A stretch of 64,000 nucleotides of DNA from Escherichia phage vB_EcoM_VR25, in sequence record NC_028925.1; one strand, written 5' to 3'. The notes under the pieces are model-generated. The model worked only from the letters and a program-made list of their open reading frames with translations, ran no database searches and was not told the DNA's origin. Below are positions 6,197 through 16,956 of the stretch, piece after piece (position 1 is the stretch's first letter; the number at the start of each line of letters is the position of its first letter). The translations under genes and the position numbers were made by a program.

Positions 6197-7015
6197 ATGC
6201 TTAAAGAACAACTCATTTCTGAAGCTCAAAACATCGATGCTTCCGTTGCTCTCGATAGTATTTTCGAATCAGTTAATTTGTCCCCGGAAGCGAAAGCTAC
6301 CTTCGGCACTGTATTCGAAGCTACCGTCAAGCAACACGCCATCAAACTGGCAGAATCTCACATTCACGCCATCGCTGAAAAAGCTGAAGAAGAAGTCGAA
6401 AAGAATAAAGAAGAATCCGACGAAAAAGCAGAGAAAAAACTGAAAGAATCTGCAGCTAAATTCCTGGACCACGTTGCTAAAGAATGGCTTGCTGAAAACA
6501 AACTGGCTGTCGACCGTGGCATTAAAGCTGACCTGTTCGAATCCATGTTTACCGGCATGAAAGAACTGTTCGTTGAGCACAACGTTGTTGTTCCAGAAGA
6601 ATCTGTTGATGTTGTTGCAGAAATGCAGGAAGAACTGGAAGAGCAAAAAGCTGAAACCGCTAGTCTGTTCGAAGAAGTTTCTAAGCGTGATGCTTATATC
6701 AATTATGTCCAGCGCGAAGTTGCGTTGACTGAAGCGACCAAAGACCTGACCGAATCTCAAAAAGAAAAAGTTGGTTCTCTGGTAGAAGGTATGGATTATT
6801 CCGATGCGTTCGGTACCAAAATTGGCGCTATCGTTGAAATGGTTAAAGGTCAGGTAGACACCGCCGAAAAACCTATCACCGAAGCAGCTATAAATAATTC
6901 TGTAGACGATGCTGCGGCACTGAATTACATCTCAGAAGCAGTTGAAGAAAAAGGCGCCAAGCCTACCCTGTCCTTCGCGGACTTGTCTGCTCTCGCAGCA
7001 TCACGAATTTCTTAA
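6197..7015 (+). CDS. 22: Prohead core scaffold protein
   Basis: 272-aa acidic, coiled-coil-like ORF in the gene 22 slot. Confidence 0.9.
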   Translation: MLKEQLISEAQNIDASVALDSIFESVNLSPEAKATFGTVFEATVKQHAIKLAESHIHAIAEKAEEEVEKNKEESDEKAEKKLKESAAKFLDHVAKEWLAENKLAVDRGIKADLFESMFTGMKELFVEHNVVVPEESVDVVAEMQEELEEQKAETASLFEEVSKRDAYINYVQREVALTEATKDLTESQKEKVGSLVEGMDYSDAFGTKIGAIVEMVKGQVDTAEKPITEAAINNSVDDAAALNYISEAVEEKGAKPTLSFADLSALAASRIS

Positions 7016-7036
7016 TTTAATAAGGTTATACAACAC

Positions 7037-8596
7037 ATGAAAAAGAATGCATTAGTTCAAAAATGGTCCGCTCTGCTGGAAAACGAAGCTCTTCCTGAAA
7101 TCGTTGGTGCTTCTAAACAAGCTATCATCGCTAAAATCTTTGAAAACCAGGAACAAGATATCCTGACCGCTCCTGAATACCGTGACGAAAAAATCTCCGA
7201 AGCATTTGGTTCTTTCCTGACTGAAGCTGAAATCGGTGGTGACCATGGTTATGATGCTACCAATATCGCGGCTGGCCAGACCTCTGGTGCAGTAACTCAG
7301 ATTGGGCCGGCAGTTATGGGTATGGTTCGTCGTGCTATCCCGCATCTGATTGCGTTTGATATTTGTGGCGTGCAGCCTCTGAACAACCCGACTGGCCAGG
7401 TATTTGCCCTGCGTGCAGTTTACGGTAAAGACCCTGTAGCTGCTGGTGCTAAAGAAGCTTTCCACCCGATGTATGCTCCGAACGCTATGTTCTCTGGTCA
7501 GGGCGCTGCTGAAGCTTTCGAAGCTCTGGCTGCAAGCAAAGTTCTTACCGTTGGTAAAATTTATTCTCACTTCTTCGAAGCAACCGGTTCCGCACACTAC
7601 CAGGCTGTTGAAGCTGTAACCGTTGATGCTGGCGCTACTGATGCTGCTAAACTTGACGCTGAAGTTACCAAACTGCTCGAAGCTGGTAAACTGGCAGAAA
7701 TTGCTGAAGGTATGGCTACCTCTATCGCCGAACTGCAGGAAGGTTTCAACGGTTCTCAGGATAACCCGTGGAACGAAATGGGCTTCCGCATCGATAAACA
7801 AGTTATCGAAGCTAAATCCCGTCAGCTGAAAGCAAGCTACTCTATCGAACTGGCACAGGACCTGCGCGCTGTTCACGGTATGGACGCTGATGCTGAATTG
7901 AGTGGTATTCTGGCTACTGAAATTATGCTGGAAATCAACCGCGAAGTTATCGATTGGATTAACTACTCCGCACAGGTTGGTAAATCTGGTATGACCAACA
8001 CCGTTGGCGCTAAAGCTGGTGTGTTTGACTTCCAGGACCCAATTGATATCCGTGGCGCTCGTTGGGCTGGTGAAAGCTTCAAAGCTTTACTGTTCCAGAT
8101 TGATAAAGAAGCCGCTGAAATCGCTCGTCAGACCGGTCGTGGTGCAGGTAACTTCATCATCGCTTCCCGTAACGTAGTTAACGTACTGGCTGCAGTTGAT
8201 ACCTCCGTATCTTATGCTGCTCAGGGTCTGGGTAAAGGTTTCAACGTTGACACCACTAAAGCTGTGTTCGCTGGTGTTCTGGGTGGCAAATACCGTGTCT
8301 ATATCGACCAGTATGCTCGCGCAGATTACTTCACCATCGGTTACAAAGGCGCTAACGAAATGGATGCTGGTATCTACTACGCACCATATGTTGCACTGAC
8401 CCCGCTGCGTGGCTCTGACCCGAAAAACTTCCAGCCGGTTATGGGCTTCAAAACCCGTTACGGTATCGGTATTAACCCGTTCGCTGACCCGGCAGCTCAG
8501 GCTCCGACCAAGCGTATTCAAAACGGCATGCCGGACATTGTTAACAGCCTCGGCTTGAACGGTTACTTTAGACGTGTATATGTAAAAGGTATCTAA
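7037..8596 (+). CDS. 23: Major capsid protein
   Basis: 519-aa ORF; paralogous to the downstream gp24 ORFs (shared SRKLK..S..ELAQDL and YYAPY motifs); T4 order. Confidence 0.95.
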   Translation: MKKNALVQKWSALLENEALPEIVGASKQAIIAKIFENQEQDILTAPEYRDEKISEAFGSFLTEAEIGGDHGYDATNIAAGQTSGAVTQIGPAVMGMVRRAIPHLIAFDICGVQPLNNPTGQVFALRAVYGKDPVAAGAKEAFHPMYAPNAMFSGQGAAEAFEALAASKVLTVGKIYSHFFEATGSAHYQAVEAVTVDAGATDAAKLDAEVTKLLEAGKLAEIAEGMATSIAELQEGFNGSQDNPWNEMGFRIDKQVIEAKSRQLKASYSIELAQDLRAVHGMDADAELSGILATEIMLEINREVIDWINYSAQVGKSGMTNTVGAKAGVFDFQDPIDIRGARWAGESFKALLFQIDKEAAEIARQTGRGAGNFIIASRNVVNVLAAVDTSVSYAAQGLGKGFNVDTTKAVFAGVLGGKYRVYIDQYARADYFTIGYKGANEMDAGIYYAPYVALTPLRGSDPKNFQPVMGFKTRYGIGINPFADPAAQAPTKRIQNGMPDIVNSLGLNGYFRRVYVKGI

Positions 8597-9027: not shown

Positions 9028-10308
9028 ATGGCAAAGATTAACGAACTGCTGCGCGAGTCAACTACCACTACCAGCAACTCCTTGGGCCGCCCGAATCTTG
9101 TTGCTTTGACCCGTGCTACAACCAAATTGATTTACCGCGATATTATCGCTGAACAACGTACTAACCAGCCAGTTGCGGCTCTGTACGGTGTTAAATATCT
9201 TACTCCTGATAATGAATTCAGTTTCCAGACTGGTGCTACTTATGGTGGTGAAGTCGGTTCTAAAGACCGTACAACTATTCCAGAATTAGCTACAGCTACT
9301 CAGCCTGTTGCTAAAGGCGAATATGTAAAATATCAAAATATCGTTTACAAAGCTCTGGTGGATAATCCATTTGCAACAACCACAGAAACAGTATTATCTG
9401 ATGTTCTACAGGAAGGTCTTATTGCATCGACTATTCGTTTAGTTCCTGATGCAGCGCATACCGAGAAATTTGAAGCCGGTGATGTTGAAATTAGTAACGC
9501 CGTGTTCCAGGTTAATAAATGGAATGCTCCTGTTAAATCCCGTAAATTGAAAACTGCACTGACTGTTGAACTTGCTCAGGATATGGAAGCAAACGGTTTT
9601 AATGCTCCTGCTTTCCTGGAAGACCTGCTTGCAACTACCATGGCAGACGAAATTAACAAAGATGTTCTGCAGTCTCTGATTACCGTTTCCAAGCGTTATA
9701 AAGTCACTGGCGTTTCTGATAAAGGTTTCATCGATTTGACATATGATTCAGCTCCAGAAGGCGCACGTAAACTATACGAACTGGTTTGCGAAATGAACTC
9801 TGAAATTCAGAAAACTACATCTTACTCTGGTACATTCGTTGTTGCCTCAAGTCGTGTGGCCGCGATGCTCGCCGGTTCCGGTTGGTTGAAACATAAACCT
9901 GAAGATGAACAATGGCTCCCGGAAACCGCGTACGGCTATTTGATTAATGGTCTTCCTGTATTCTGTGATGTTAACAGTCCATTGGATTATGTAACCGTTG
10001 GCGTTAAAGAAAATTACGGTGGAAACGAAGTCGTAGGCTCAATCTTCTATGCTCCTTATACCGAAGGCCTGGACTTAGATGATGAAGAACATGTAGGTGC
10101 GTTTAAGGTCATTGTGGACCCAGACAGCTTGCAGCCATCTATCTCCTTGATGGTTCGATATGCACTTTCAGCTAACCCTTACACCGTTGCTAAAGACGAC
10201 AAAGAAGCTCGTATTATCGATGCAACTAATATGGATTTAATGGCCGGCCAGAGCAACATGTCTTATCTGCTCGGTGTTAAACTTCCACCAATCATTTATG
10301 AGGCGTAA
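9028..10308 (+). CDS. 24: Head vertex protein gp24
   Basis: 426-aa ORF; N-terminus MAKINELLRESTTT..SLGRPNLVALTRATTKLIY matches remembered T4 gp24. Confidence 0.93.
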   Translation: MAKINELLRESTTTTSNSLGRPNLVALTRATTKLIYRDIIAEQRTNQPVAALYGVKYLTPDNEFSFQTGATYGGEVGSKDRTTIPELATATQPVAKGEYVKYQNIVYKALVDNPFATTTETVLSDVLQEGLIASTIRLVPDAAHTEKFEAGDVEISNAVFQVNKWNAPVKSRKLKTALTVELAQDMEANGFNAPAFLEDLLATTMADEINKDVLQSLITVSKRYKVTGVSDKGFIDLTYDSAPEGARKLYELVCEMNSEIQKTTSYSGTFVVASSRVAAMLAGSGWLKHKPEDEQWLPETAYGYLINGLPVFCDVNSPLDYVTVGVKENYGGNEVVGSIFYAPYTEGLDLDDEEHVGAFKVIVDPDSLQPSISLMVRYALSANPYTVAKDDKEARIIDATNMDLMAGQSNMSYLLGVKLPPIIYEA

Positions 10309-11592
10309 ATGCAAAAGATTAACGCACTAATTCACGAATCAACATTAACGGCGGCCAACCAGGTCGCCCGTCCTAATTTGCTTTCTTATACTCGGGCTAC
10401 GAATAAACGAATTTTTAAAGCTCTTGTGGCCGAACAGAAAACTACTCAGCCAGTCGCAGCGCTGTATGGCGTTCGTGTTCTGAACCCAGATGATAAAATG
10501 ACTTATCTTGGTGGAGCAACATTTGCAGGCCAGATTGGTATGTTCGAGCGTAAGAATATTCCAGAATTTACGAACAAAGACGAAGCTTATGCAGTCGGCA
10601 ACATGTTCCAGTTTGAAAGCATTGTATTCAAAGCTTTGGAAGCTTCTCCTTTTGCCGGGACCCTCGAAACTGATTTGGGTGAAGTTATTTCTGAAGCCAT
10701 TGCGGCTGGCCATATAAGAATGATGTCAGATGCGGCTTTCACTGATAAATTTGAACAAGGACATCCTGAAATTGCTGAAGCCGGTTTCCGTATTGATAAA
10801 TGGCAGACTGAAGTTAAATCCAGAAAACTGAAAACCTCTTTAACCGTTGAGCTTGCGCAAGACCTGGAAGCAAATGGTTTCGACGCAACAGATTTTATTG
10901 ATAATATCCTTGGTATTCAAATGGCAGAGGAAATTAATAAGGACGTACTGCAATCTTTAATTACCGTGAGTTCGCGTTTTAAAGTCCAGGGTGTTTCCGA
11001 AAAAGGTGTACTTAATCTTACTGATGCCGCTTATGATAATGCTCAGGACCGTGCTCGAACTCTGTATTATTATATGTGCGAAATGAATTCCGCAGTTCAA
11101 CGTCAGACTTCGTTCGCTGGTACATATGCAGTCGCTTCTTCCCGTTGTGCAGCTATTTTAGCAGCTTCTGGCTGGGTTGAGAAAAAGGAAGACCAAGATG
11201 AATTGGCCTATGGTGTTCTGAAGAACGGTTTGCCACTTTATGCAGATATGAATAGCCCGTGCGATTATGTTATTGTTGGTGTAAATGCTGATATGGGTGA
11301 AGGTCAGACAGTCGCATCTTTGTATTATGCGCCTTATACGGAAGGTCTTAGTGAAGTTGATGATGAGGGTGACACCTCGGTTGGGGAATTCAAGGTTATC
11401 GTTGACCCCGAAAGTTTACAGCCTACAGTTGCACTGTTAGCTCGTTATGCACTGACTGCAAACCCTTACACCGTTGCTAAAGACGATAAAGAAGCTCGCA
11501 TTATTGATGGAGCTGATATGGATAAGATGGCTAACCAAAGCCAATTGAGTTCTTATCTTGGTGTTAAACTTCCACCACTGGAAAAAGAATAA
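10309..11592 (+). CDS. Second, diverged gp24-like head vertex protein (tandem paralog)
   Basis: 427-aa ORF starting on the TAAATG junction; clearly homologous along full length to upstream gp24 (MQKINALIHESTLT..., shared C-terminal ANPYTVAKDDKEARIID). Confidence 0.88.
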   Translation: MQKINALIHESTLTAANQVARPNLLSYTRATNKRIFKALVAEQKTTQPVAALYGVRVLNPDDKMTYLGGATFAGQIGMFERKNIPEFTNKDEAYAVGNMFQFESIVFKALEASPFAGTLETDLGEVISEAIAAGHIRMMSDAAFTDKFEQGHPEIAEAGFRIDKWQTEVKSRKLKTSLTVELAQDLEANGFDATDFIDNILGIQMAEEINKDVLQSLITVSSRFKVQGVSEKGVLNLTDAAYDNAQDRARTLYYYMCEMNSAVQRQTSFAGTYAVASSRCAAILAASGWVEKKEDQDELAYGVLKNGLPLYADMNSPCDYVIVGVNADMGEGQTVASLYYAPYTEGLSEVDDEGDTSVGEFKVIVDPESLQPTVALLARYALTANPYTVAKDDKEARIIDGADMDKMANQSQLSSYLGVKLPPLEKE

Positions 11593-12617: not shown

Positions 12618-12714
12618 AATCTCTCACTTTTGATGTTATAAATATCATTATAAATTATACCCTCTATACTTTCTTTCTCTGAAAGGAATTAATCGTATCG
12701 GAAGGTCTAGAACC

Positions 12715-13210: not shown

Positions 13211-13347
13211 GTTGAGTTAGTGAAGCTATCTTAACATGGAATTTTTAACTTGTAAACAGGAGTTTTATGCCAGATATTCTTGAACGTAAAGATTTACTTT
13301 ACAACCGCCACTACTTTAATAAATATTAAATTAATAACGGAGGATTT

Positions 13348-14928
13348 ATGACACAAACTACAGGTGAAAAAGAAGGCGTATTTTACGGTTATTCTCTTTA
13401 TGATTTGAATAAAGAAAAACTAATAACTTTTGATGAATTACTTACAGGTGTTCAAGGAGAGCCCGGAGAAAATGGCGATATTGGACCAAAAGGCCCTATT
13501 GGTTTAACAGGTCCTCAAGGACCGAAAGGTGATACCGGGTCAAAAGGTATTAAAGGTGATACCGGCCCTCAAGGTATTCAAGGGCCCGCTGGCCCACAAG
13601 GTCCTCAGGGAGAAAAGGGAGTCCAAGGTTTAGCTGGAGTCCAAGGCATTCAAGGACCAGTCGGCCACCAAGGAGTGAAAGGTGATACCGGCCCTCAAGG
13701 TATTCAAGGACCGAAAGGTGATACAGGTCCTCAAGGCCCACAAGGTGACAAAGGCGAAATGGGTCCGGTGGGTCCGGCTGGTCTAACATGGAAAGGAACA
13801 TGGGACGCTGATGTAGAGTATTCTATAAATGAGGCTGTCGGATATGGTGGTTCTTTATATTTCGCCAAAACAAAAGTTCCTAATGGCGAAATACCAACAC
13901 CGACTTCTAACTATTGGGGTGTTTTGGCTACCGAGGGTCCACAAGGTCCACAAGGTCAACAAGGTCTTAAAGGTGATACCGGTCCTCAAGGTATTCAAGG
14001 ACCTGTAGGGCCTGTAGGGCAGCAGGGTATTCAGGGACCAAGAGGACTTCAAGGGTCAGAAGGTGAAATAGGACCGCGGGGTATTCAAGGGCTAAAAGGC
14101 GAAACTGGGCCCGCTGGTCCACAGGGTATTCAAGGGCTAAAAGGCGAGGTGGGTGCTCAGGGTCCTTCTGGTTCTCCTGGACTTACAGGACCAGAAGGAC
14201 CTCGTGGGTTAACAGGCGAAGCTGGAGCTCAAGGACCTCGTGGTGCTATAGGTCCTATCGGTTTAACAGGTCCTATCGGTTTAACGGGTCCTCAAGGTAT
14301 TCAAGGTCCTAAAGGTGATACAGGTCCTCAAGGCTTACAAGGTCCTCAAGGCTTACGAGGTATTCAAGGAGCTCCTGGAGTAAAAGGAGAAGCGGGTGCA
14401 CAAGGTCCTATCGGTTTAACAGGTCCGAAAGGTGATACCGGTCCTCAAGGTATTCAAGGACCGAAAGGTGATACAGGAGCACAAGGTCCTATTGGTTTAA
14501 CTGGACCTAAAGGTGATACAGGCCCGAGCCCTTATACTGTTTATAATTATTCTAATGTTGCAACTGGTTATGCTGAAATGGTTATGCCTGGTGTGTCATC
14601 AAACACAGTATTTAGACTTCGTTCAGTTGGAACTAATATAGAATATAGTGTTCTAAGTAAAGGCGGAGCTAATAGATATGTAGATTGGCACTTTTCAATT
14701 CCAAGTGTTTCCGGCAATACAGTAAGTACTAATAGCGGAACTAATACATTAACTCCTACAGGTAATTTTACTATTGTGGCGACCGCTTATAATGGACTAA
14801 GGGGATTTACAATAACATTATGCGAGTGGGGTTCAAGAGCTATTGTTGATATCACTGTTTATCATCATGGGCGTTCGGGAGACACAACCAAAGCTGTGGC
14901 TATTCGTATGACTACTACAAAATACTAA
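13348..14928 (+). CDS. Collagen-like (Gly-X-Y repeat) protein with aromatic globular insert and C-terminal globular domain
   Basis: 526-aa ORF, GGAGGA RBS; two long uninterrupted G-X-Y blocks (about 13450-13790 and 13930-14525) separated by a W/Y-rich segment; about 135 aa non-collagen C-terminus. Confidence 0.85.
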   Translation: MTQTTGEKEGVFYGYSLYDLNKEKLITFDELLTGVQGEPGENGDIGPKGPIGLTGPQGPKGDTGSKGIKGDTGPQGIQGPAGPQGPQGEKGVQGLAGVQGIQGPVGHQGVKGDTGPQGIQGPKGDTGPQGPQGDKGEMGPVGPAGLTWKGTWDADVEYSINEAVGYGGSLYFAKTKVPNGEIPTPTSNYWGVLATEGPQGPQGQQGLKGDTGPQGIQGPVGPVGQQGIQGPRGLQGSEGEIGPRGIQGLKGETGPAGPQGIQGLKGEVGAQGPSGSPGLTGPEGPRGLTGEAGAQGPRGAIGPIGLTGPIGLTGPQGIQGPKGDTGPQGLQGPQGLRGIQGAPGVKGEAGAQGPIGLTGPKGDTGPQGIQGPKGDTGAQGPIGLTGPKGDTGPSPYTVYNYSNVATGYAEMVMPGVSSNTVFRLRSVGTNIEYSVLSKGGANRYVDWHFSIPSVSGNTVSTNSGTNTLTPTGNFTIVATAYNGLRGFTITLCEWGSRAIVDITVYHHGRSGDTTKAVAIRMTTTKY

Positions 14929-14937
14929 GGAGCTTTA

Positions 14938-15801
14938 ATGGAACCGGTTAAAGCTGTGTTAGAGCCTGATGTAATAGATGTGGAATATGGTAATACATAC
15001 TCGGCTACTGTAACTCTGTCTCCTATAGAAAATATTCCAGATGGTTCCGTGATAAGATATGATTGGGTTGTTAATAACAAGTTCGTTGGTACGGGTGAAG
15101 CTACTCGTACCACCCAACCATCTCAGACCGGAAATTATGTATTATCATGTAGAGTATTCATTACTCCGCCTAATGAAAATACTGTAATGATAACAACTAA
15201 TAAATCATATGGGTATGTATATAAAAATTCCGATACAAGTCCAGTAGATGCAGAAATATTATATGATAACAAGATATACCAAATAGGAAGCAAAGTTAGA
15301 TTATTAGCCGTTGCCAATAACCCAGATACCAACTTTGTTAAAGGTATTATATGGAAGGATGCTGATGGTAAGATAATAGGTATAGGTCGGGAATATATCC
15401 ATACAATGCAATCAGAGTATGATATAGTTCGAGCTAAAGTTACAATGGATTCGCCTATAAGAGATGAATTTAGTAAGAACTTTACTATACATTTGTACGC
15501 TATAAATGTTCAAGAAGGAACATGTATAAGATATATTCATCCTTTAGACCACAGGGATGCAGGATTTATCTGGTGTGGTTGGTGGGTTATGGATGAAATC
15601 CAACGAGCGATAAAACTTGGGCTGGATTGGAAAAATCCAAAAGAGCTAGATTTAAATTACAAGTGTGATTTAGAGACATTAGCGTTATTGCTCAAGACAT
15701 ATCCTGAAGCCGAAGTTCAAGAATCAAGACACGGATATATAATAACCAGACTACAAATTGAGACTGGCGAAATATATAAAAAACCATATGAAGTAAAATA
15801 A
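14938..15801 (+). CDS. Hoc-like capsid decoration protein (second hoc paralog)
   Basis: 287-aa ORF, AAGGAG RBS; C-terminal region (HPLDHR..IWCGWWVMDEIQ..YPEAEVQESRHGYII) shares the capsid-binding domain with the canonical Hoc downstream. Confidence 0.85.
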   Translation: MEPVKAVLEPDVIDVEYGNTYSATVTLSPIENIPDGSVIRYDWVVNNKFVGTGEATRTTQPSQTGNYVLSCRVFITPPNENTVMITTNKSYGYVYKNSDTSPVDAEILYDNKIYQIGSKVRLLAVANNPDTNFVKGIIWKDADGKIIGIGREYIHTMQSEYDIVRAKVTMDSPIRDEFSKNFTIHLYAINVQEGTCIRYIHPLDHRDAGFIWCGWWVMDEIQRAIKLGLDWKNPKELDLNYKCDLETLALLLKTYPEAEVQESRHGYIITRLQIETGEIYKKPYEVK

Positions 15802-15803
15802 AA

Positions 15804-15817
15804 GGGCCTTGCGGCCC
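15804..15817. terminator. Bidirectional terminator between convergent hoc-like and hoc genes
   Basis: GGGCC-TTGC-GGCCC stem with flanking A/T tracts. Confidence 0.65.
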
Positions 15818-15824
15818 TTTATCA

Positions 15825-16928
15825 TTAATAGACGTAATCGTATATAATACCAGCTTCCAATGCCGAACGGTGGACGATACGACCGTTACGAGATTCCTGT
15901 ACATCAACTTCCGGGTAATCACTAAGCATTTTGGCTAATACCGCCAGATGACAATAATATGGTGTATCCTCTTTAGTGGCTTTTTTCCAATCTGTACTTT
16001 CAGATGTTAATTTCTGAATAGCGTCCATAACCCACCAGCCACACCAAATATACGCAGTATTACGGACAGGAAGTGGATGTACATAAATTAAAGGGCATTC
16101 TTCTGGAATAACAGGCTCTGCTTCTTCCACAGTAACGGACTTAGTACCTGATTTAACTGAATTTGTAAAGCCTGTTTGTGATGCGGTAACTTCACAAGTA
16201 TATGTCTTCAAGCCTTCAGTGGATTCCGTTATTGCTCTTGTTGCTTCTGTTGAGTTGTCGTCCCATTTATATGCAAGAGTCGCACCAGGGATAGCAGGGG
16301 ACACAGAAGCTGTCAAATTGAATGGAACATCAACCGTTGCAGTAGACGGGCCTGAAATCTCAACAGTGAACTCAGGAAATGTATTGTTTTCGACCGTAAC
16401 AACTACTGCCTCAGGATTAATAACTTGATTGTCATAATCTGCCGCAGAAACGGTAATTTGGCAAGTTAAAGAAACTGGTCCTGCGTCAGTAGCAGCACGA
16501 GTAATATCTTTAGTAATTTCACCAGTAGACCACAAATATGCTATTGTAGCTCCACCGGGTTCACCTGTTACATTAGCCGAAGCGTTATATTCCTGACCAA
16601 CTTTAACAGTAGGAGTGGAAGTTGTTAATGTTGCTGTTGCAGCCATAGTCTTATTATTAACCGTAATGGTTGTTTGAGCCTCTGCCGTTTCAGGCTCTCC
16701 TTCTTCCGGCGTTGTGGTGGCAACAACTTTAATTACTTTTGAACCTGCTGGGCCAGCTGCAATATAATCCATAGTAGCAATAACAGAATCTTGTGGAACA
16801 TCATCAACGGTCCATACAAAAGATTCGGTACCAGCGACAGCGGCTCCAGCCCCAGTAGCAGTAAAATTAGTTGTTGCACCTATAACCGCTGTAGGTGTTA
16901 AAGGGGCAATTGATACAGTATAAGCCAT
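15825..16928 (-). CDS. hoc: Highly immunogenic outer capsid protein Hoc
   Basis: 367-aa ORF, Ser/Thr/Ala-rich Ig-like repeats plus C-terminal YVHPLP..YIWCGWWVMD..YPEVDVQESRNG motif as in T4 Hoc. Confidence 0.92.
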   Translation of the reverse strand: MAYTVSIAPLTPTAVIGATTNFTATGAGAAVAGTESFVWTVDDVPQDSVIATMDYIAAGPAGSKVIKVVATTTPEEGEPETAEAQTTITVNNKTMAATATLTTSTPTVKVGQEYNASANVTGEPGGATIAYLWSTGEITKDITRAATDAGPVSLTCQITVSAADYDNQVINPEAVVVTVENNTFPEFTVEISGPSTATVDVPFNLTASVSPAIPGATLAYKWDDNSTEATRAITESTEGLKTYTCEVTASQTGFTNSVKSGTKSVTVEEAEPVIPEECPLIYVHPLPVRNTAYIWCGWWVMDAIQKLTSESTDWKKATKEDTPYYCHLAVLAKMLSDYPEVDVQESRNGRIVHRSALEAGIIYDYVY

Positions 16929-16956
16929 AAAACCTCCAAGGGCCGAAGCCCTTTTG

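Follow-up and report, generated by a model that had tools for sequence, protein, structure and literature searches.

T4-like phages carry on their capsids the decoration protein Hoc (PDB 5vf3, 8t1x), and second Hoc-like proteins have been discussed in the phages Muldoon and PG7, with the proposal that phages redeploy the capsid-binding domain for the display of other ligands (Fokine et al. 2023, PMC10385173). Collagen-like and other small proteins have been placed at capsid hexamer centres in further phages. SPP1 gp12 is a non-essential, collagen-like homotrimer at this position, and in a cryo-electron microscopy (cryo-EM) study of phage phiTE an unmodelled 'Pagoda' density at the capsid hexamer centres was putatively assigned to phiTE_217 (pTE217), from its abundance in mass spectrometry. 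Here, we describe a two-gene cassette in a 64-kb window (the whole stretch of DNA analysed) of Escherichia phage vB_EcoM_VR25 (hereafter VR25), a T4-like coliphage of the genus Gaprivervirus. The cassette lies between gene 24.3 and hoc, and encodes a collagen-like protein (ORF1) and a second Hoc-family protein (ORF2), which we call Hoc2.

The VR25 locus resembles each of the described systems in part. As in T4, the Ig-like domains of Hoc2 are N-terminal to the binding domain and the gene stands in the hoc/inh locus, but the Ig-like domains number two in Hoc2 and three in T4 Hoc, and the hoc2 gene is a second copy on the opposite strand, always paired with a collagen-like gene. Like Muldoon and PG7, VR25 is a T4-like phage with an extra, shorter Hoc that has the same capsid-binding domain. 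In Muldoon, however, one strand carries both hoc genes in tandem, without a collagen gene, and in PG7 a GDSL lipase is fused to the capsid-binding domain, whereas the candidate cargo in VR25 is a separate, predicted-trimeric polypeptide. SPP1 gp12, a protein of 6.6 kDa with a short collagen stretch that binds the capsid protein directly, differs in scale from the VR25 protein, with its 526 aa, 104 triplets, knob and tip, and is a precedent, by function only, for a collagen-like trimer at the hexon centre. The Pagoda protein pTE217 and its homologue CR3 gp010 have N-termini of ~35 aa that show a weak similarity to that of the VR25 collagen protein (the N-motif), and genes of this type adjoin N-motif collagen genes in a head module; pTE217, in contrast, lacks a collagen repeat, has a putative capsid assignment, and comes from a phage without Hoc. 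Finally, the phi24B gp61 lateral tail fibre and the head fibres of the flagellotropic phage 7-7-1 are likewise long and flexible, with a small distal globular domain for first host contact, but phi24B gp61 attaches to the tail via a coiled-coil N-terminal rod, and the N-motif is not a feature of either system.

We tentatively explain the cassette as an exchanged capsid-surface module, in which Hoc2 would be accompanied by a head-borne collagen fibre and would be its likely adaptor.

The cassette encodes a Hoc homologue and a collagen-like protein

The window contains two plus-strand genes with strong ribosome-binding sites between 24.3 and hoc (coordinates in Table 1), in the opposite orientation to the surrounding minus-strand genes (rnlB, 24.2 and 24.3, a DUF2774 protein, on one side; hoc and inh on the other), as an earlier reading of this DNA (the original prediction) had stated. 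That prediction had proposed profile searches as a check, and these placed ORF1 in Pfam Collagen and ORF2 in PHROG 1149. The identities that it gave to the two genes, a collagen fibre and a Hoc-type capsid binder, are solid.

ORF2 matched PHROG 1149, 'Hoc-like head decoration', at 1e-57, and T4 Hoc (PDB 5vf3_Z) at 3e-26 by phmmer. Its C-domain is 48% identical to that of VR25's own Hoc, which bears out the claim that gene 2 ends in the capsid-binding domain of canonical Hoc. An AlphaFold2 (AF2) model of Hoc2 (predicted local distance difference test, pLDDT, 87) consists of two Ig-like beta-sandwich domains, a linker and an alpha/beta C-domain, and Foldseek matched it to tandem (two-domain) Ig receptors (E ~1e-6). 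We placed the published capsid-contact and loop residues of T4 Hoc on the phmmer alignment, and found that Y293, H295, H299, R300, W306, W309, W310, D313, Q354, E355, S356, R357, G359 and Y360 (T4 numbering) are unchanged in Hoc2, and that the changes of Y304 to F and of N358, in the E-S-R-N-G loop, to H are conservative. In the major capsid protein gp23, the segment bound by Hoc, G326-R344 (T4), is identical in VR25 at 18 of its 19 positions, with D336 and R344 retained. The retention of the contact residues together with that of the docking segment argues that Hoc2 is very probably competent to bind capsid hexamer centres, for which it would very probably compete with canonical Hoc. The isoelectric point (pI) of Hoc2 is 5.3, against 4.3 for VR25's own Hoc.

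The Hoc2 proteins of the cassettes form a clade, with the C-domain signature IRYIHPLDHRD and YKC[D/E]L. Since Serratia phages 92A1 and X20 bear this signature in their ordinary, single Hoc, Hoc2 has the appearance of a hoc allele acquired from a different T4-like lineage. Canonical hoc has decayed in Kosakonia phage 305, leaving a C-terminal remnant of 11 codons (LEAGTIYSYVY*, 7290-7322 on the minus strand of locus L006), and Hoc2 is the only Hoc. The remnant is followed in this phage by ~300 nt of unannotated sequence. We additionally noted, on a metagenomic T4-like contig (L014, 5871-8753, minus strand), a canonical Hoc of 960 aa, ~2.5 times the usual length, with many Ig-like repeats.

ORF1 matched Pfam Collagen (PF01391) at 1.9e-50 (cutoff 27.2 bits). 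The predicted dominance of Gly-X-Y was found, the protein containing 38 + 66 = 104 uninterrupted G-X-Y triplets, which make up 312 residues or 59% of its length. We would expect it to form a homotrimeric triple helix, with helical blocks that, at 0.286 nm per residue, would total ~90 nm. The globular knob between the blocks is homologous (phmmer) to segments of two relatives (P0070 and P0013) that Pfam scores as CBM_5_12, a transitive link, and aa 140-204 of the VR25 protein had no match to Pfam CBM_5_12 (PF02839) at E<=1. Collagen block 2 is six triplets (18 aa) shorter in VR26 than in VR25; the length of the fibre seems to change through slippage or recombination of repeats, because this indel lies inside tandem DNA repeats of 18/36 bp, at 14250-14480.

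The C-terminal tip has been exchanged between lineages. The collagen proteins of VR7 and KIT01 keep the N-motif and have tips unrelated to that of VR25, while the VR25/VR26 tip recurs in JS10, Kosakonia phage 305, the Vequintavirinae phage A5-4 and Rogunavirus e4/1c, and the tip of L014 is similar to the one in Cronobacter phage CR3 gp011. Phage fibres classically combine a conserved N-terminus, the virion-proximal anchor, with exchangeable C-termini, the distal receptor-binding tip, and we infer that the N-motif and the tip of the VR25 protein correspond to these two ends. A BclA/C1q-TNF-like domain was considered for the tip and rejected, as the tip did not have the jelly-roll C1q/TNF fold. 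A search with the tip domain alone against 5.8 billion proteins returned nothing, and a search with full-length ORF1 was swamped by unrelated collagens; local phmmer recovered five proteins with the tip domain and two with the N-motif.

Distribution of the cassette and of its N-terminal motif

The structural genes of VR25 are 97.6% identical to those of VR7, and its cassette is nearest to that of VR26 (98.7% nucleotide identity across the alignable part). The cassette is annotated in VR7 (gp196, 'collagen triple helix repeat domain protein', and gp197, 'similar to T4 Hoc'), VR5, VR26, ESCO10, the Dhakaviruses KIT01 and JS10, and the Kanagawavirus Kosakonia phage 305, and a collagen/hoc2 pair is also borne by L014, which is 173 kb long. 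It is absent from the close relatives SP18, VR20, CJ20, TH54 and P896, in which the flanks are near-identical. In SP18, 24.3 directly abuts hoc, the gene order that the original prediction had given for T4. Thus, the cassette is real, accessory and rare. In the synteny comparison that had been proposed as a further check, ~8 phages carried it among ~1,160 records with a Hoc-like match. The novelty implied for the cassette was overstated, as it has been annotated in GenBank since JS10 and VR7, and Fokine et al. (2023) had earlier discussed second Hoc-like proteins. It is thus an already annotated, uncharacterised locus: the searchable literature on the VR phages and JS10 yielded no experiments on it, and the VR26 biocontrol paper mentions neither the collagen gene nor hoc2.

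In 9/9 T4-like genomes found with the collagen gene (VR25, VR26, VR7, VR5, ESCO10, KIT01, JS10, Kosakonia phage 305 and L014), it is followed on the same strand by a Hoc2-clade gene, and no case of a collagen gene without Hoc2 was identified among them. The spacing is usually 9-12 nt, with 29 nt in Kosakonia phage 305 and 127 nt in VR7. The pairing spans three genera and 41-98% Hoc2 identity, extends to the genome in which canonical hoc has been lost, and concerns Hoc2 as the sole other gene gained together with the collagen gene.

Two further associations were considered and rejected. VR25 encodes tandem paralogues of the capsid vertex protein gp24 (9028-10308 and 10309-11592, plus strand), as do VR7, VR26, JS10 and Kosakonia phage 305, while KIT01 and SP18 have one copy; a link between the cassette and the gp24 duplication does not hold, since gp24 is single in KIT01, a carrier of the cassette. 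Nor does the cassette follow the 'low-temperature' phenotype for which the VR phages are noted, as VR20 lacks it and it is present in JS10 and KIT01, which we take to be ordinary 37 °C phages.

A profile of the N-motif, searched against 1.84 billion representative proteins, identified ~14 true members, in all of which the motif starts at residue 1 and is directly followed by G-X-Y repeats, with at least five types of tip. Among sequenced phages, the motif is found only in the T4-like cassettes and in the Vequintavirinae CR3, CR8, PBES 02, SSBI34, POP15-18 and A5-4. Identity to the VR25 motif is 92-97% in VR7, VR5, VR26 and KIT01, 59% in Kosakonia phage 305, and 41-63% in the Vequintavirinae.

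In the Vequintavirinae, the N-motif gene lies in the head/neck block, between the major capsid/decoration genes and the head-tail adaptor. The order of products is decoration protein, major capsid protein, an Inh_N-like protein, proteins of ~1,093 aa and 216 aa, sometimes a protein of ~103 aa, the N-motif collagen protein, and the head-tail adaptor. The ~103-aa protein, CR3 gp010, is a homologue of pTE217, and the N-motif collagen genes stand beside, or in place of, this gp010-type/Pagoda gene. The N-termini of gp010 and pTE217 read MAAIGG-SLG-TGY-IMDQ-TG--KTISELF-GG, followed in gp010 by a short collagen stretch, and align with the N-motif in register over 35 columns (hhalign probability 88%, E 3e-6, 29% identity); no similarity between the N-motif collagen proteins and pTE217 was found beyond the N-terminus. 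A Rogunavirus protein combines the same tip as VR25 with a DUF1737-type N-domain, and its gene is immediately upstream of the major capsid gene. Considering the gene positions in T4-like phages, Vequintavirinae and Rogunavirus together, the fibre family is therefore encoded among head genes in three phage families. The recurrence of the N-motif only at the start of collagen proteins, the head-module family and the possible link to Pagoda are new here.

At the CR3 locus (L009), the adjacent genes for gp010 (103 aa, 6637-6948) and gp011 (456 aa, 6992-8362) each start with an N-motif and collagen repeats, and their products could possibly form short and long fibres on one attachment site, or heterotrimers. 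In the Vequintavirinae, the gene that directly follows the one for the major capsid protein contains Pfam Phage_Inh_N (L011, 115-717; phiTE, L012, 3711-4325). This is the N-domain of Inh, the prohead-protease inhibitor of T4, and so an Inh-like gene neighbours hexamer-centre decoration genes in both T4-like and rV5-like phages.

Where the fibre would be attached

The original prediction proposed an accessory surface-display module. Of this, the Hoc-type binder, the collagen fibre and the accessory insertion stand, the capsid location of the fibre is supported indirectly, and the module as a whole is plausible. In the explanation that we prefer, the two genes would have been exchanged horizontally as one capsid-surface module. 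After head expansion, the C-domain of Hoc2 would dock at the gp23 hexamer centres, one copy to each, in competition with canonical Hoc, and capsids would display a mix of two different Ig-domain stalks. The collagen-like protein would form a homotrimeric fibre of ~90-100 nm, its 33-residue N-terminus proximal to the virion, its shaft interrupted by the CBM5/12-like knob, and its basic beta-sandwich tip serving as the distal ligand-binding end. This fibre would be carried by the head, not by the tail, with Hoc2 in T4-like phages as the most likely adaptor to the hexamer centre, and would act as a long-range 'hair' of low affinity, catching cells or polysaccharide surfaces before the tail fibres come into play; binding to mucus or glycans is a speculation.

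The steps of this explanation are not equally firm. The gene context makes a position on the head probable, and favours the view that the fibre belongs to a small, cross-family group of head-module fibres with a possible link to Pagoda. Docking specifically through Hoc2, to which the strict co-inheritance in ~9 T4-like genomes points, is a more tentative suggestion. We are doubtful of a version in which Hoc2 is a dedicated adaptor, capturing the N-motif of the collagen trimer through its Ig-like stalk or C-domain to build a hetero-oligomeric capsid 'hair' of ~90 nm, and in which anchor motif, shaft and tip have each been exchanged between T4-like, rV5-like and T1-like phages. If this version were true, the 'Pagoda' density left unmodelled in phiTE would be accounted for by the same anchor motif.

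Several observations weigh against a head-borne fibre docked on Hoc2. We looked for Hoc-like ORFs near the Vequintavirinae and Rogunavirus loci and found none, so the N-motif, which works in Vequintavirinae without such a neighbour, is not an obligate Hoc2-binding peptide. Between VR25 and VR7, the N-motif is 97% identical and Hoc2 only 41% (36% and 27% in the Ig domains), which gives no hint of co-evolution; the alleles of N-motif, tip and Hoc2 assort independently of one another. The docking of a trimer on a monomeric Hoc2 is a symmetry mismatch. The resemblance between the N-motif and the Pagoda N-termini is not significant in a plain hmmsearch (4.4 bits), and the assignment of pTE217 to the Pagoda density itself has abundance in mass spectrometry as its sole basis. 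The exact late box TATAAATA was not found directly upstream of the cassette, where there are 7/8 matches. Finally, our literature search found neither virion proteomics nor EM for cassette phages, and the presence of both proteins in virions is predicted.

If the fibre is head-borne and docked on Hoc2, the locus would be a natural two-component capsid-display system in T4-like phages, consisting of a Hoc-type anchor and an exchangeable long fibre. This would bear on the first contact of phages with cells, flagella or mucus, on the identity of capsid densities and head fibres elsewhere (the Pagoda of phiTE and the fibres of phage 7-7-1), and on Hoc-based display engineering, and would correct the label 'tail fiber protein', which has spread through RefSeq.

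That label reflects an alternative which we consider unlikely, in which the collagen protein is an accessory tail, baseplate or neck fibre, Hoc2 is an independent decoration, and the two genes are adjacent because they were transferred together into a permissive hotspot for insertions. The label 'tail fiber' is attached to PHROG 5073 and to many collagen-containing PHROGs, and the fold of the tip domain recurs in proteins of that name, but PHROG and RefSeq labels of this kind are a propagated annotation, spread by similarity. Moreover, ORF1 enters PHROG 5073 only from profile position 59, so that the DUF1737-type N-domain of that family is missing from the VR25 protein. Lateral tail fibres commonly have collagen shafts, as in phi24B gp61, and a tail fibre would accord with the lack of co-variation between the N-motif and Hoc2. 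The gene, however, is placed in the head or neck block in three phage families and not among baseplate or fibre genes, and no fibre chaperone-like neighbour adjoins it. Residues 1-33 have no Pfam or PHROG match to known fibre-attachment N-termini, no second copy of the N-motif was found in the 64-kb window, and chance would hardly account for a pairing with Hoc2 that is strict in ~9 genomes. The position in the head module, the possible likeness to the Pagoda N-terminus and the precedent of SPP1 gp12 together argue against the 'tail fiber protein' label. If the fibre is nevertheless not head-borne, the locus would be a rare accessory insertion in a hypervariable region.

Less probable again is a collagen trimer that binds the capsid directly via the N-motif, at the hexamer centre or another symmetric site, with Hoc2 not as its adaptor but co-selected because both remodel the capsid surface. 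SPP1 gp12, a collagen-like trimer, itself binds directly at the hexon centre, Pagoda/gp010-type proteins with a related N-terminus appear at hexamer centres in a phage without Hoc, and the N-motif is conserved whatever the Hoc2 allele. T4-type gp23 and the Vequintavirinae capsid protein are, however, very different, yet the N-motif is 50-60% identical across these families; the hexamer centre of T4-like capsids is already the site of Hoc; and the constant presence of a Hoc2 gene beside the collagen gene would be left without a reason. It is highly improbable that the cassette is a selfish or decaying passenger that encodes no virion component, its products being, for instance, non-functional or secreted at lysis: its presence varies among near-identical Gapriverviruses, but both ORFs are intact in ~9 genomes from three genera and have strong ribosome-binding sites, the capsid-contact residues are conserved, the G-X-Y periodicity is unbroken over 312 residues, and Hoc2 has replaced hoc in Kosakonia phage 305.

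Expression signals and feature coordinates

Table 1. Features of the VR25 cassette and related loci, in positions of the 64-kb window.
Feature	Position	Strand	Remarks
gp23 major capsid protein	7037..8596	+	carries the Hoc docking segment
Exact T4-type late-promoter box TATAAATA	12637..12644	+	rnlB/24.2 intergenic; antisense through 24.2/24.3 towards the cassette; putative function
Late-promoter-like box AATAAATA	13318..13325	+	7/8 match; 22 nt upstream of the collagen gene ATG; weak evidence
Shine-Dalgarno GGAGGA of the collagen-like gene	13339..13344	+
ORF1, collagen-like fibre gene	13348..14928	+	526 aa, 52.6 kDa
N-motif, TGEKEGVFYGYSLYDLNKEKLITFDELLTG	13348..13446	+	aa 1-33; presumed virion anchor or trimer nucleus
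Collagen block 1	13447..13788	+	aa 34-147; 38 G-X-Y triplets, ~33 nm
Internal globular knob	13789..13935	+	aa 148-196; CBM5/12-like
Collagen block 2	13936..14529	+	aa 197-394; 66 G-X-Y triplets, ~57 nm; built of 18/36-bp DNA repeats
C-terminal tip domain	14530..14925	+	aa 395-526; basic (pI 9.4), 10-strand beta-sandwich, exchangeable module
Shine-Dalgarno AAGGAG of hoc2	14927..14932	+	overlaps the stop codon of the collagen gene
ORF2, hoc2, second Hoc-family head-decoration gene	14938..15801	+	287 aa
Two tandem Ig-like domains of Hoc2	14938..15507	+	aa 1-95 and 100-190
Hoc capsid-binding domain of Hoc2	15523..15798	+	aa 196-287
GC-rich hairpin AAAGGGCC-ttgc-GGCCCTTT	15801..15820		between the convergent stops of hoc2 and hoc
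Canonical hoc	15825..16928	-	367 aa, pI 4.3; putative competitor for the same hexamer-centre sites

The exact late-promoter box TATAAATA, ~700 nt upstream of the cassette, is conserved in VR26, VR7, Kosakonia phage 305 and L014, and also in the cassette-less SP18, and is therefore not cassette-specific; it could give rise to antisense RNA or to transcription that reads through into the cassette. Closer to the collagen gene, AATAAATA is conserved in VR7 and VR26, and CATAAATA is found at a similar distance in Kosakonia phage 305 and L014. No late-promoter-like box was identified directly upstream of the collagen gene in KIT01 or JS10. Late expression of the cassette is plausible from these motifs.

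In VR25, VR7 and VR26, an insert of ~80 bp lies upstream of the collagen gene (13245-13347) and holds a mini-ORF of 19 codons, MPDILERKDLLYNRHYFNK (13268-13327), with its own CAGGAG site. The insert is absent from KIT01 and JS10, in which the collagen gene begins at the upstream CAGGAG site instead.

Both Shine-Dalgarno sites were as the original prediction gave them, whereas the gap between the two genes measures 9 nt and not the 10 nt claimed. The hairpin that was taken for a terminator shared with canonical hoc does lie between the two stops, but in a consensus scan it scored as a terminator for the minus strand (hoc) alone, because the plus-strand T-tract is short. Analogous hairpins are present at the Kosakonia phage 305 locus. 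We additionally observed a second GC-rich hairpin, AAGGGC-cgaa-GCCCTT (16938-16953), between hoc and inh, which scored as plus-strand terminator-like though both neighbouring genes are on the minus strand.

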